NCBI GenBank assembly: GCA_035528715.1
Contig: DATKYB010000054.1
Span: 131-64,130 of the forward strand
Length of the DNA: 64,000 bases
From: Nitrospinota bacterium
GTDB taxonomy: Bacteria > JADFOP01 > DATKYB01
Reading direction: 5' to 3'
Shown one piece after another: positions 13,237 to 41,286 of the stretch (position 1 is its first letter; the number at the start of each line of letters is the position of its first letter). The translations under genes were made by a program, and so were the position numbers. Under the pieces are notes generated by a model that made no database searches, was not told where the DNA came from, and saw only the letters and a program-made list of their open reading frames with translations.

Positions 13237-13347
13237 AACGACTACTTTTTCATTATTGAAAAAACCTTTTAATATTATTATACTGAAATATTATAGAACC
13301 ATAAATTATCGAATGAATATTTTTTAAAAAGGAGGAATCTATTGATT

Positions 13348-15783
13348 ATGAAGATAAATCTTGCTTCCAAAGAGGTGCCTATTGAAAATCTGAGATGGCG
13401 TTGCGACCTAAATAAACTTACTTTTAAAGATACCTGTGAAGTCAAGGCCTGTGATGAAATTATAGGTCAAGAAAGGGCTTTAAAAGCTATTAGACTGGGT
13501 CTTGAAATAGAAGGCATGGGTTACAATGTCTTTGTAACCGGATTGGCAGGAACTGGAAGAACAACTACCATAAAATGTCTCTTAGAAGAGATAGATAAAA
13601 AGAAAAAGCTTCCAGATGATATCTGTTATGTAAATAACTTTCAAGATCCTGATACACCTCGAGCGATACTTCTCAAACCAGGATTAGGGAAAAAATTTAA
13701 GAGGGATATGAATCTGTTAATAGAATCGATGAAAAAAAATATCCCAGAAGTATTTGAAAGTGAGGGATACCAAAAAAAACAAAAGAATATTGTTGAGTCA
13801 CTGAGAGAAAAAGGGAAGGATATCTTTAAAGAACTCGAAAAAAAACTGTCCAAAGAAGGATTTACAACTATCCAAGTTCAGCCCGGGCAATACCTAAGGC
13901 TCGATATAGCTCCATTAGTAAAAGAAAAACCTATCAATATAGATGAATTAGAAAAAATAACAGAGGAGGGAAAATTTTCTAAAGAAGAATTTAAAAGGCT
14001 AAAAGAAAAATATAAAGAATTCAGTACAGACCTTTTAGAGACAATTAACATAAGCCAGAAGATTGAAAAAGAAATTCGTGAAAATGTTGATGAGCTCAAC
14101 AAAAAAACTCTCTTGCCTCTCGTAGAAAATGCAATTTTTGAAATCAAAGTAAAATATAAAAACAAAAAGATAGACCGATATCTAGAAGATGTTAAAACCG
14201 ATATTTTAGAAAATTTTGAAAGATTTGTAAAAGACGTCTCTCAGTCAAAACATTCTCCTTTTAGAGATATGCCTCCTAAGGAAACCTTTAATGAATATAG
14301 AGTCAATGTTCTTATAGACAATTCAGAAGTTAAGGGATCTCCGATTATTATCGAAACGAATCCAACATATAAAAATCTATTTGGAACTATTGAGAGAGTT
14401 TTGGACCGGAGCGGTGTATGGCAGACAGATTTTACAAGGATTAAGGCAGGTTCCTTTCTTAAGGCTAATAATGGATACCTTGTAATTAATGCACTGGATG
14501 CCATGATAGAGTCAGGGGTTTGGCAAACACTGAAAAGAACTCTAAGAAATAGGGTTATGGAGATTCAAAGTTATGACCCCTTTTACATGGCAAGCATCTC
14601 TGCATTAAAACCAGAACCAATAGAGGTGAATGTAAAGGTAGTAATGATAGGAGATAACTATCTCTATCACCTCTTATACAATCACGACGATGACTTTAAA
14701 AAGATCTTTAAGGTAAAGGCAGAGTTTGACTCTGAAATGGATAAAAAAGAAGAAAGCATTGCCCAGTATACCACTTTTGTTTCAAAGATATGTATCCAGG
14801 ATAATCTTCTCCCTTTTGATAATAAGGCCATAGGAGCTATTATAGAATATGGTGTAAGACTGGCAGGAAAACAATTCAAGATATCTATACGCTTTAATAA
14901 GATAGAAGAAATCGTGAAAGAAGCCAATTTTTGGGCAAAAAAAAATGGCCGCAGAATCGTTACTGAAGAGTATGTGGATGAGGCTATTAAGGAAAAATAT
15001 AATAGGGTCCGACTGACAGAGGATAAACTCCAAGAGATGATTGATAGAGGAACATTAATGATAGACACTGACGGCATGGTAGTGGGACAGGTAAATGGCC
15101 TCTCTGTCTATGATACAGGAGACTATTCCTTTGGAATCCCAACCAGAATTACTGCCAAGACATCTATGGGCAGAGACGGCATCATTAATATCGAGAGAGA
15201 GGCAGATTTAAGCGGAAAAACCCACAACAAGGGTGTCTTAATCTTAGAAGGCTATCTAAGAAGTAAGTACGCCCAGGACAAACCCTTAACCCTCAGTTCA
15301 AGCCTCTGCTTTGAGCAATCATACGGTGGAGTAGATGGTGATAGTGCCTCCTCTACAGAAGTATATGCCATTTTATCAAGTCTCAGCGAACTCCCCTTAA
15401 GACAGGATATTGCAGTTACAGGTTCTGTTAACCAGAAGGGAGAGATACAACCCATCGGTGGGGTAAACCAGAAAATCGAGGGGTTTTATGATGCGTGTAA
15501 GGCCAAAGGACTTACTGGAAAACAAGGGGTAATGATCCCCCATTTGAATATCGAAAATCTCGCCTTGAGAAAGGATATTGTTAAGGCAGTCGAGGAGAAA
15601 AAATTCCATGTCTATTCTGTAAAAAATATAGATGGAGGTATTGAAATCCTAACCGGAGTAAAGGCTGGTAAGATTCAGAAAGATGGAACTTATCAAAAGG
15701 GATCCGTTAATTATCTGGTCAATCAAAAACTGATGGATCTCGCAATGAAGATGAAAAAATTCGGTGAAAAGAAAAAAAAATAA
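13348..15783 (+). CDS. Lon-like (LonC/COG1067-type) protease: AAA+-like N-terminal region with degenerate Walker A plus C-terminal S16 Ser-Lys protease domain
   Basis: C-terminal Lon proteolytic domain with catalytic Ser in GGVDGDSASS and Lys in IGGVNQKIEG. N-terminal P-loop-like GLAGTGRTT has Arg in place of the canonical Lys. AAAGGAGGAA SD precedes the ATG at 13348; the track start at 13342 is TTG. Confidence 0.8.
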   Translation: MKINLASKEVPIENLRWRCDLNKLTFKDTCEVKACDEIIGQERALKAIRLGLEIEGMGYNVFVTGLAGTGRTTTIKCLLEEIDKKKKLPDDICYVNNFQDPDTPRAILLKPGLGKKFKRDMNLLIESMKKNIPEVFESEGYQKKQKNIVESLREKGKDIFKELEKKLSKEGFTTIQVQPGQYLRLDIAPLVKEKPINIDELEKITEEGKFSKEEFKRLKEKYKEFSTDLLETINISQKIEKEIRENVDELNKKTLLPLVENAIFEIKVKYKNKKIDRYLEDVKTDILENFERFVKDVSQSKHSPFRDMPPKETFNEYRVNVLIDNSEVKGSPIIIETNPTYKNLFGTIERVLDRSGVWQTDFTRIKAGSFLKANNGYLVINALDAMIESGVWQTLKRTLRNRVMEIQSYDPFYMASISALKPEPIEVNVKVVMIGDNYLYHLLYNHDDDFKKIFKVKAEFDSEMDKKEESIAQYTTFVSKICIQDNLLPFDNKAIGAIIEYGVRLAGKQFKISIRFNKIEEIVKEANFWAKKNGRRIVTEEYVDEAIKEKYNRVRLTEDKLQEMIDRGTLMIDTDGMVVGQVNGLSVYDTGDYSFGIPTRITAKTSMGRDGIINIEREADLSGKTHNKGVLILEGYLRSKYAQDKPLTLSSSLCFEQSYGGVDGDSASSTEVYAILSSLSELPLRQDIAVTGSVNQKGEIQPIGGVNQKIEGFYDACKAKGLTGKQGVMIPHLNIENLALRKDIVKAVEEKKFHVYSVKNIDGGIEILTGVKAGKIQKDGTYQKGSVNYLVNQKLMDLAMKMKKFGEKKKK

Positions 15784-15838: not shown

Positions 15839-16765
15839 TTAAGACGGATTTTTTCTCGAAACAATCTCTTTTAAATTTTTATCATAGGGCGATCTTATAA
15901 TCCCTTTTTCTGTAATGATTGCATCAACAAGTCTGTTAGGGGTCATATCAAAGGCGGGATTGATAACTCTAATCCCATCAGGTGCTATCCTCTTTCCGCT
16001 AAAATGAGTTATCTCATTTGAATCTCTCTCCTCGATTGGAATATCGTCTCCTGAACTCACTGACATATCCATAGAAGATACAGGAGCAGCCACATAAAAA
16101 GGTATATTGTGTTCCATTGCTAAAATAGCTATAGAATAAGTTCCAATCTTGTTAACAACATCACCATTTGAAGCAATTCTATCCGCCCCAACAAGAACCT
16201 TATTAATATCCCCTTTTTTCATGAAATAACCCGCCATATTATCAGTTATTAAAATAACAGGAATCTTGTCCTTATTCAGTTCCCATGCTGTAAGTCGTGC
16301 TCCTTGCAAAAATGGTCTTGTCTCATCTACAAAAACATTAATTCTTTTACCATTTTTTTTGGCTGTTCTTAAAATACCTAATGCTGTCCCATAGCCAGCC
16401 GTTGCTAACGCCCCAGCGTTACAATGGGTTAAGATAGTATCTCCATCCTCAATGAGTTTTTCCCCTATATCACCCATTTTTTTACAAATGGCGATATCTT
16501 CTTCCATAATCTTAATGGCCTCTTTTTCTATTATCTTCTTTAGAACATTAATCTTTAGATCTCTATTATCCTTTATTAGCTTCTTAATCCTATCAATAGC
16601 CCAGAACAAATTGACTGCTGTTGGTCTTGTATCTGCTAAAACCTTGCATATCTTTTCGATTTTTTCATGGAAATCTTTAAAACTAGTCGTATTAATCTTT
16701 TTTGCTCCTATGGCTATACCAAAGGCAGCCGCTACACCAATAGCTGGGGCTCCCCTGACAACCAT
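15839..16765 (-). CDS. mtnA: S-methyl-5-thioribose-1-phosphate isomerase MtnA. The coordinates are an ATG-defined minimum; the conserved N-terminus continues in frame up to 16888 (see findings).
   Basis: eIF-2B/MtnA family motifs VRGAPAIG, THCNAGALATAGYGTALG and GADRIASNGD. Confidence 0.8.
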   Translation of the reverse strand: MVVRGAPAIGVAAAFGIAIGAKKINTTSFKDFHEKIEKICKVLADTRPTAVNLFWAIDRIKKLIKDNRDLKINVLKKIIEKEAIKIMEEDIAICKKMGDIGEKLIEDGDTILTHCNAGALATAGYGTALGILRTAKKNGKRINVFVDETRPFLQGARLTAWELNKDKIPVILITDNMAGYFMKKGDINKVLVGADRIASNGDVVNKIGTYSIAILAMEHNIPFYVAAPVSSMDMSVSSGDDIPIEERDSNEITHFSGKRIAPDGIRVINPAFDMTPNRLVDAIITEKGIIRSPYDKNLKEIVSRKNPS

Positions 16766-16888
16766 ATTCTTAATTGCAGTAGCAACTTCTCTATAATCGT
16801 TACATTCTACATAAACCTCTTCCTCGGGAAGTCTGGTCTGGTCTATTAATATAAGCCTAGTCTTTTTATACTCTAGTGTCTTAACCAG

Positions 16889-17206
16889 CTACTTATCCCC
16901 CTTTGAAATGAGTTTTAAAATGCCTTTTTTATTTATCCCCATAACCATTATTCGCTTTTCTCTGCTTTTTTCACCCCTTATAATAGTAAGAGAGGATGTT
17001 TTTACTCCGAAACTCTTTGCCAAAAACTTTATGCACTCTCTATTCGCTGCTCCTTCAACTGCAGGTGCTGCAATCTTTACCTTCAATACTCCATTGTAAA
17101 TACCACTTATTTCATTCCTAGAAGACTTAGGCACAACCTTGATATCAAAGATAACCCCGTTAGTAGCATCATCAACCTTCAACATAGCATCATTTGCCTC
17201 CCTCAT
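16889..17206 (-). CDS. DUF167 (YggU) family protein
   Basis: About 100 aa; (V)KV.PKSSRNEI.G....LKVKI.APAVEGAAN pattern typical of YggU. A possible internal start at M8 (17185) would remove the overlap with divIVA. Confidence 0.75.
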   Translation of the reverse strand: MREANDAMLKVDDATNGVIFDIKVVPKSSRNEISGIYNGVLKVKIAAPAVEGAANRECIKFLAKSFGVKTSSLTIIRGEKSREKRIMVMGINKKGILKLISKGDK

Positions 17207-39744: not shown

Positions 39745-39866
39745 GTAAATAAATCTTTATTTTTCTTTTTTTAAGGCTTAAAACTAAGAAATTGAAAGCT
39801 TTTAATGAGGATTAGAAAGGAATGAATAAGATAAGAATTAATTGGAAAAGAAATTAGAAAAATATA

Positions 39867-40295
39867 CCAAAGTAGATCATAAGCCGGGTTCTGTACCTAA
39901 AAAATTAGGTGATGATCATTTATCTGGGACACAGGTTACCCTTTGCCTCTAGCGACCTAACCCGAAAGCATCGGACGAGCAATCCTTATTTAGAAATAAG
40001 CAACTTCGTGAATAACCACAAAGTAAAATAGCTTATATCTAAAGTGCTTCCCTATTTGGTCTTGCTCCGGATGGGGTTTGTCAGCTCTCGATGTCACCAT
40101 CGAGACTGGTAAGCTCTTACCTTACCTTTTCACCTTTGCCCTTTTAAAGATTTTTTAAAAGGGTAGTCTCTTTTCTGTGACACTTTCCTTAGGGTTACCC
40201 CTACTGGACGTTATCCAGCATCCTGCTCTGCGGAGCCCGGACTTTCCTCTAGTTTCAAAAAATTTTGAAACCAGCGATCATCTGATCTACTTTGG
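39867..40295 (-). ncRNA. rnpB: RNase P RNA, bacterial type A
   Basis: Minus-strand transcript contains P4 5'-strand AGGAAAGTCCGGGCTCC and P4 3'-strand ACAGAACCCGGCTTA; GGTGAAAAGGTAAGGTAAGAGCTTACC (P10-P12 region); GGAGCAAGACCAAATAGGG. A 13-bp P1 helix (CCAAAGTAGATCA/TGATCTACTTTGG) defines the ends. Region is GC-rich relative to its surroundings. TATAAT about 10 nt upstream of the 5' end. Confidence 0.9.
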
Positions 40296-41210: not shown

Positions 41211-41286
41211 TGGTGGGCCCACCTGGGCTCGAACCAGGGACCTACCGGTTATGAGCCGGTGGCTCTTCCAACTGAGCTATGGGCCC
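41211..41286 (-). tRNA. tRNA with anticodon CAU and CCA encoded; most likely tRNA-Ile2 (lysidine), alternatively elongator tRNA-Met
   Basis: Cloverleaf GGGCCCA-TA-GCTC-AGTTGGAA-GAGC-C-ACCGG-CTCATAA-CCGGT-AGGTC-CCTGG-TTCGAGC-CCAGG-TGGGCCC-A-CCA. G1:C72 excludes an initiator. C4:G69, C5:G68 and C29:G41 match TilS identity elements. It lies immediately downstream of rpoD, as ileX does in E. coli. Confidence 0.9.

Follow-up and report, generated by a model that had tools for sequence, protein, structure and literature searches.

In the 64-kb stretch of DNA analysed here (64,000 nucleotides, from now on the window), the gene for S-methyl-5-thioribose-1-phosphate isomerase, mtnA, is very probably translated from a CTG (CUG) codon. 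This codon lies at positions 16888-16886 of the minus strand, directly after the TAG stop of an upstream DUF167 gene. We favour this start because it coincides with the start position of orthologous proteins, because a strong Shine-Dalgarno (SD) sequence is placed in front of it and because the CTG is conserved in a diverged relative. A first-pass annotation of the same DNA had listed a rare start at the CTG after the stop among several explanations, and this is the one that our results support: the orthologous starts, the SD sequence 8 nt upstream and the CTG of a sister species all point to it. The mtnA CTG start is a further case of a documented, uncommon exception and involves no new mechanism.

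The arrangement of the junction is simple to describe. When the minus strand is translated in a single frame from 17206 to 15839 we obtain the DUF167 protein (105 aa), one stop, the peptide LVKTLEYKKTRLILIDQTRLPEEEVYVECNDYREVATAIKN and then MVVRGAPAIG and the remainder of MtnA. The DUF167 (YggU-family) gene, taken from its first ATG, spans 16889-17206 on the minus strand (Pfam PF02594, E = 3.3e-25; NCBIfam TIGR00251). Its TAG stop occupies 16891-16889 and is in frame with mtnA, and the CTG is the very next codon, at a distance of 0 nt. Codons 1-41 of mtnA (16888-16766, minus strand) contain no in-frame ATG, GTG or TTG, the earliest in-frame ATG is codon 42 at 16765-16763, and the frame closes with TAA at 15841-15839. 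Read from the CTG, the full-length gene therefore consists of 349 codons and the TAA, at 15839-16888 on the minus strand. Among the 60 long open reading frames (ORFs) of the window, mtnA has the largest gap between a stop and the first canonical start, i.e. these 41 codons. Our single-frame translation and start-codon check agree exactly with the first-pass annotation on the position and description of the junction, on the lack of ATG, GTG and TTG in the 41 codons and on the run of the frame into the in-frame DUF167 stop. We also considered a frameshift from another frame. Both of the other frames upstream of the junction hold stops and no canonical start, and the two genes already share a frame, so this candidate was rejected.

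The 41 codons encode a conserved MtnA N-terminus, as had been proposed from the letters alone. We built a profile from the N-terminal parts of 39 homologues; against it, the 41 residues on their own reach 83.6 bits (E = 6e-25), compared with 8.5 bits for the best of 2000 shuffled sequences. The complete 349-aa protein scores 456.9 bits against TIGR00512, the NCBIfam mtnA equivalog model (cutoff 279), and the match spans residues 4-332, beginning at model position 2. Likewise, the CTG-started protein scores 488.8 bits against NF004326 (cutoff 271), and the alignment with Thermotoga maritima MtnA (PDB 1T9K) begins at residue 2 with E = 5.5e-130. The residues that are invariant or nearly invariant in this part of the family are all kept (T4, I15, D16, Q17, L20, P21, E24, Y26, V35, A38 and I39). 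Further along the protein, C156 (in THCNAG) and D236 (in GADRI) are present and fall in invariant columns of a 40-sequence alignment. These are the conserved active-site Cys and Asp, to which a catalytic role is ascribed in Bacillus subtilis MtnA. The same length, 349 aa, is found in P0002, the closest full-length relative. By family membership, the predicted product is a normal 349-residue MtnA. It resembles known MtnA proteins (PDB 1T9K and 2YVK; TIGR00512) over its full length, including the N-terminal block, and only the start codon differs.

An AlphaFold2 model of the protein has a mean pLDDT of 89, with 10-residue block means of 76-95 at the N-terminus. In this model residues 5-8, 11-15 and 26-29 form strands and residues 32-40 a helix, so that codons 1-41 (16766-16888, minus strand) correspond to a small three-stranded sheet and a helix. 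If translation instead began at the first ATG (16765), the product would be a 308-residue MtnA in which, according to the model, this sheet and helix are removed, and the upstream 41 codons would be an untranslated remnant. There are some arguments for such a start. The ATG is the sole canonical start in the frame, gene callers pick it in every assembly, and the Pfam IF-2B domain begins only at residue 44, so the whole of this domain would be retained. However, the Met at position 42 is an internal residue that is invariant in 40/40 aligned homologues, which confirms the first-pass statement that the first ATG lies inside the conserved core. Furthermore, the 41 codons have stayed open with their invariant residues intact across about 11% nucleotide divergence. 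Between the window and its sister species, dN/dS is 0.34 in the 41-codon stretch and 0.27 in the next 60 codons, the former value being a weak test of selection that rests on 15 differences in 40 codons, of which 6 are synonymous and 9 non-synonymous. Finally, not one of 174 mtnA loci starts at Met42 where a canonical start is available upstream. We consider translation from this ATG quite unlikely.

Where do the relatives start? The codon aligned with the CTG is ATG or GTG in 48 of 78 GTDB species representatives, and most of the others start one codon to either side. In the larger set of loci, a canonical start is found within -8 to +3 codons of the CTG position in 154/174. Alignment of the orthologues thus places the expected MtnA N-terminus at or near the CTG codon, and not at the VRGAPAIG segment.

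The closest relatives are the most informative. In the window the junction reads AAG GGG GAT AAG TAG followed by CTG GTT AAG ACA. In a sister species, here called species C (loci L007 and L008, from two assemblies; 90% amino acid and 88.8% nucleotide identity), it reads AAG GAG GAT AAG TAA followed by CTG GTT AAG ACA; this species has no canonical start either and carries CTG at the same codon. Among the relatives with a canonical start, the two nearest carry TTG in precisely this position: in L009 (80% amino acid identity) the sequence is AAG GAG ATA GGC TAG followed by TTG GTC AAG ACC, and in L010/L011 (72% amino acid identity) it is AAG AGC TAG A followed by TTG TTC AAA ACA, where the additional A offsets DUF167 and mtnA by one base and places them in different frames. 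As for strain B, it is 98.1% identical to the window at the nucleotide level with 0 differences in the 123 nt of the 41 codons, and it keeps the TAG and CTG of the junction. Relatives therefore share the arrangement in part. The CTG is found in strain B and species C, but the stop is TAA in species C, and L009 and L010 have TTG in place of CTG. Scans of genome and metagenome contigs for further members of the CTG clade recovered only strain B (L092).

Since the closest canonical-start relatives carry TTG at this position, parsimony suggests that the CTG most likely arose from an ancestral TTG by a single T-to-C transition in an ancestor shared by the window species and species C. The invariant N-terminal residues are kept in both CTG lineages, which are separated by a dS of about 0.25-0.3, and mtnA has not decayed over this distance.

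These comparisons also bear on the idea that the start has simply been lost, by a mutation that has left a pseudogene or by a sequencing or assembly error. A single base change (TTG to CTG) is all that is needed to remove a canonical start. Yet the junction is reproduced widely. Strain A is represented by six independent assemblies (L001-L006, from ENA, JGI and Logan) in which DUF167-mtnA is 100% identical over 1368 nt, and strain B by five (L092 and L172-L175, including the 115-kb contig SMTZ1_10000012). The junction is identical in all of these, which come from different samples and assemblers, and the CTG recurs in the two assemblies of species C. The first-pass annotation had suggested a sequencing error in the TAG; as at least 11 contigs, assembled independently and drawn from different samples, all show the same junction, we exclude it. 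With regard to a pseudogene, the full 349-codon frame is intact, the invariant residues of the catalytic region are conserved, and the CTG has persisted over the synonymous divergence given above in a gene that shows no decay. Taken as a whole, a lost or artefactual start is very unlikely.

A ribosome-binding signal is found where a CTG start would need it. The SD-like sequence AAAGGGGGA (16896-16904, minus strand) lies within the final codons of DUF167, which encode K G D K before the stop, and its G-run ends 8 nt before the CTG. The predicted duplex with the canonical anti-SD sequence ACCUCCUUA has an energy of -10.7 kcal/mol, making it the strongest site between -45 and +135. Sites as strong as this are found at only 4 of the 59 other ORF starts in the window (median -5.4 kcal/mol) and at 0.7% of random positions, which puts the CTG in the top 7% of window ORF starts. 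The signal is kept at the same place in the relatives, with a perfect AAGGAGGA in species C (-11.6 kcal/mol) and AAGGAG in L009 (-9.1 kcal/mol). An unusual use of start codons across the genome had been considered as well. When the window ORFs with long stop-to-start gaps were scanned for a near-cognate codon with a good SD, only mtnA stood out, and no other ORF of the window needs such a start.

The other candidate starts compare poorly. Upstream of ATG42 the anti-SD duplex reaches just -1.4 kcal/mol, while 37% of window ORFs have an SD of -6 kcal/mol or stronger, and the strong site stands before the CTG instead. Initiation at another near-cognate codon, i.e. ATA13, ATA15 or ATT39, would also be in frame, and in E. 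coli such codons initiate at levels similar to CUG (bioRxiv 10.1101/063800). However, these codons have no SD either (-2.9 kcal/mol each), none of them matches an orthologous start, the conserved strands would be lost from the product, and ATT39 is replaced by ATC in species C. The first-pass annotation had named ATA and ATT as options, and the lack of an SD together with the loss of conserved residues leaves them extremely unlikely.

A further proposal was that the DUF167 stop is read through, by suppression or by recoding of TAG, to give a DUF167-MtnA (YggU-MtnA) fusion. DUF167 and mtnA do share a frame and are separated by one stop only, and the base after the TAG is a C. A stop codon followed by C is a comparatively weak termination context among the tetranucleotide stop signals of E. 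coli. Against this, DUF167 ends with TAA in species C, and the one-base offset in L010 makes a fusion impossible in that relative. Recoding is also at odds with the rest of the window: the genetic code is standard there, because TAG closes 14 of the 60 ORFs (TAA closes 37 and TGA 9). We found no stimulatory RNA structure at the junction, where the fold z-score is 0.06 relative to shuffled sequences, and no match to an Rfam family. Among the best 120 database matches there is no MtnA homologue of fusion length, the longest being 377 aa. Furthermore, the orthologous N-terminus begins at exactly the CTG codon. The read-through proposal therefore finds no support in the species C stop, in the frames of L010 or in RNA structure, and is in our judgement very improbable. 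The CTG start remains the reading that we prefer.

How would such a start be used? We propose that the strong SD at the end of the DUF167 coding region positions the 30S subunit at the CUG, where the initiator tRNA would read the codon with a mismatch at the first position and insert fMet as the first residue of MtnA. The first position is also the one that is mismatched for GUG and UUG. On this proposal the CUG would be derived from an ancestral UUG and would have been retained in at least three lineages, namely two strains and the sister species. The CUG codon is an intrinsically poor initiator, about 10-fold weaker than UUG, with the caveat that the efficiencies were measured in E. coli and not in this lineage. 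Measured with reporters in E. coli, initiation at CUG reaches about 1-2% of the AUG level (0.02-3% across constructs) and yields an N-terminal Met, and UUG and GUG initiate at 10-100% of AUG (bioRxiv 10.1101/063800). The expression of mtnA would be expected to be low.

The geometry of the junction suggests a second element. Because the stop and the start abut (0 nt), ribosomes that finish DUF167 may re-initiate on mtnA by termination-reinitiation. Coupling of this kind would partly offset the low intrinsic efficiency of the CUG and, combined with the strong SD, would plausibly bring a weak codon to the output required of a salvage enzyme. The process works only at overlaps or very short distances, with a steep fall beyond a few nucleotides (PMC10666635). 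Like the coupled gene pairs described by Huber et al. (2023, PMC10666635), DUF167 and mtnA are unidirectional, have a 0-nt stop-start distance and carry the SD inside the upstream coding region. Typical coupled pairs, however, have overlaps of -4 or -1 nt and ATG or GTG starts, whereas the start of mtnA is near-cognate and the coupling is predicted from geometry. There is no intergenic space at the junction, and promoter-like and terminator-like matches in the region are at chance level. Judged from the abutting geometry, translational coupling of DUF167 and mtnA seems to us about evenly balanced between true and false.

Bacterial CTG starts have been documented before, e.g. for RepA of the RepFIB replicon in E. 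coli, for RpsL in Deinococcus-Thermus by mass spectrometry, and for Deide_03051 of Deinococcus deserti (PMC2830850). In the last of these the annotation was changed to a CTG start, since conserved elements of the fold were missing from the canonical model (Baudet et al. 2010, PMC2830850). The mtnA case is like all three in that the protein is conserved and otherwise ordinary but has a near-cognate CTG in the place of a canonical start. It is like Deide_03051 in that it is recognised because the canonical-start model drops conserved N-terminal fold elements, and like rpsL in that the CTG is conserved among close relatives. There are also differences. MtnA is a salvage enzyme, not a replication or ribosomal protein like RepA and RpsL, and unlike the CTG-start genes of that report (PMC2830850) its CTG abuts an upstream stop and the ancestral TTG is visible in sister lineages. 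Moreover, the CTG of RpsL is known by mass spectrometry, whereas that of mtnA is predicted from the sequence.

Another useful comparison is with infC and pcnB of E. coli, where non-canonical AUU starts are used for regulation. The mtnA start may be likened to these, in that a near-cognate codon would keep expression low and sensitive to the stringency of start-codon selection. Unlike infC and pcnB, the codon is CUG rather than AUU, and the comparison does not extend to autoregulation or any other regulatory role.

What is the practical importance of this result? It is mainly an annotation correction. All public copies of MtnA from the window clade (clusters P0001 and P0003) are 308-aa calls from ATG42 (16763-16765, minus strand). 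They are almost certainly 41 residues short and begun at an invariant internal Met, because standard gene callers accept only ATG, GTG and TTG. Any work that predicts structures, assigns families or infers pathways in this lineage consequently begins from a shortened MtnA. The points that are particular to the case are the TTG ancestor, the persistence of the CTG over a species split and the direct abutment of stop and start. We appear to have here a natural downgrade of a start codon from UUG to CUG, with the ancestral state in sister lineages and the derived state kept over the species split. This makes the mtnA junction a convenient case for studying how SD strength and termination-reinitiation may compensate for a near-cognate start.

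Some further irregularities were seen at mtnA starts elsewhere in the family. In a clade of Bacillota/Clostridiales MAGs (L043/L117, L069/L128, L079 and L044), mtnA lacks a canonical start where one would be expected (about 1495-1515 in each locus). Instead, the codon that corresponds to residue 2 of the window protein is an ATC, and a strong SD, GGGGAGGGG or GGGAGGG, lies upstream of it at a distance of 6-7 nt, the sequence being GGGGAGGGGTAA AAA ATC AAA ACT TTG GAA TGG. The next canonical start is a TTG at +4, 15 nt from the SD, in 3 of the 4 species; L044 lacks this TTG, and its only canonical start lies 12 codons upstream. Based on these sequences, the ATC is probably an independent near-cognate start in the mtnA family. 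In a groundwater MAG (L054, contig JACQXZ010000082.1, about 1490-1510) an in-frame TAA is followed by ATA AAG ACA GTA GAA TGG, encoding IKTVEW; GGTGAT lies upstream, and the first canonical start comes only at codon +13. This case comes from a single contig, and the ATA may be either a start or an assembly error.

Taken with the CTG clade, the Bacillota ATC and the groundwater ATA give three apparently independent cases. These raise the idea that near-cognate starts are not just tolerated but recurrently selected in mtnA, so that production of a methionine-salvage enzyme would follow the state of the translation-initiation machinery. If true, the mtnA start would be a weak one, sensitive to IF3 and fMet-tRNA, strictly dependent on termination of DUF167 and analogous to the AUU of infC. 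We consider this quite unlikely.

Two homologues of about 330 aa with starts at MIDQ (P0066/L177 and P0068/L176) were tried as further non-canonical cases and rejected, as their contigs hold ATG or GTG at the orthologous position. These proteins are about 15 residues short, from ordinary start errors of the gene callers. The 377-aa homologue P0118 has an internal duplication of the segment running from ETRPFLQGARLTA to ITDNM, which is probably an assembly artefact or a tandem duplication.

The source contigs derive from sediment or soil metagenomes and the bacterium is uncultivated, the organism of the CTG lineage being known from metagenome contigs only. GTDB does not include the lineage: the nearest representatives there, MAGs labelled Nitrospinota or 'Nitrospirae', share only 66% identity in MtnA. 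The G+C content of the window is 35%. On the minus strand the gene order is yggS - proC - yggT - divIVA - DUF167 - mtnA, and the adjacency of DUF167 and mtnA is conserved in Nitrospinota-like relatives. The start of DUF167 is itself ambiguous: some assemblies have the 105-aa call, whose ATG at 17206 gives a 17-nt overlap with the end of divIVA, and others have a 98-aa call from the ATG at 17185, 4 nt past the divIVA stop. Convergent to mtnA lies a gene for a LonC/LonB-like protease of 813 aa (13342-15783, plus strand; Pfam LonC_helical, AAA_32 and Lon_C), with a TTG start behind a perfect AAGGAGG. TTG starts make up a high share in the window, 12 of the 60 ORFs.

An initiator tRNA of an unusual kind was also considered. 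The window contains a single tRNA (CAT anticodon, 41211-41286, minus strand), but its G1-C72 is paired and its anticodon stem is ACCGG/CCGGT, without GGG/CCC. It is therefore not an initiator and is uninformative on the decoding of the start codon. Its acceptor and T arms resemble those of tRNA-Ile2 (lysidine). Just downstream of this tRNA is a bacterial class A RNase P RNA (39865-40293, minus strand; 322 bits).
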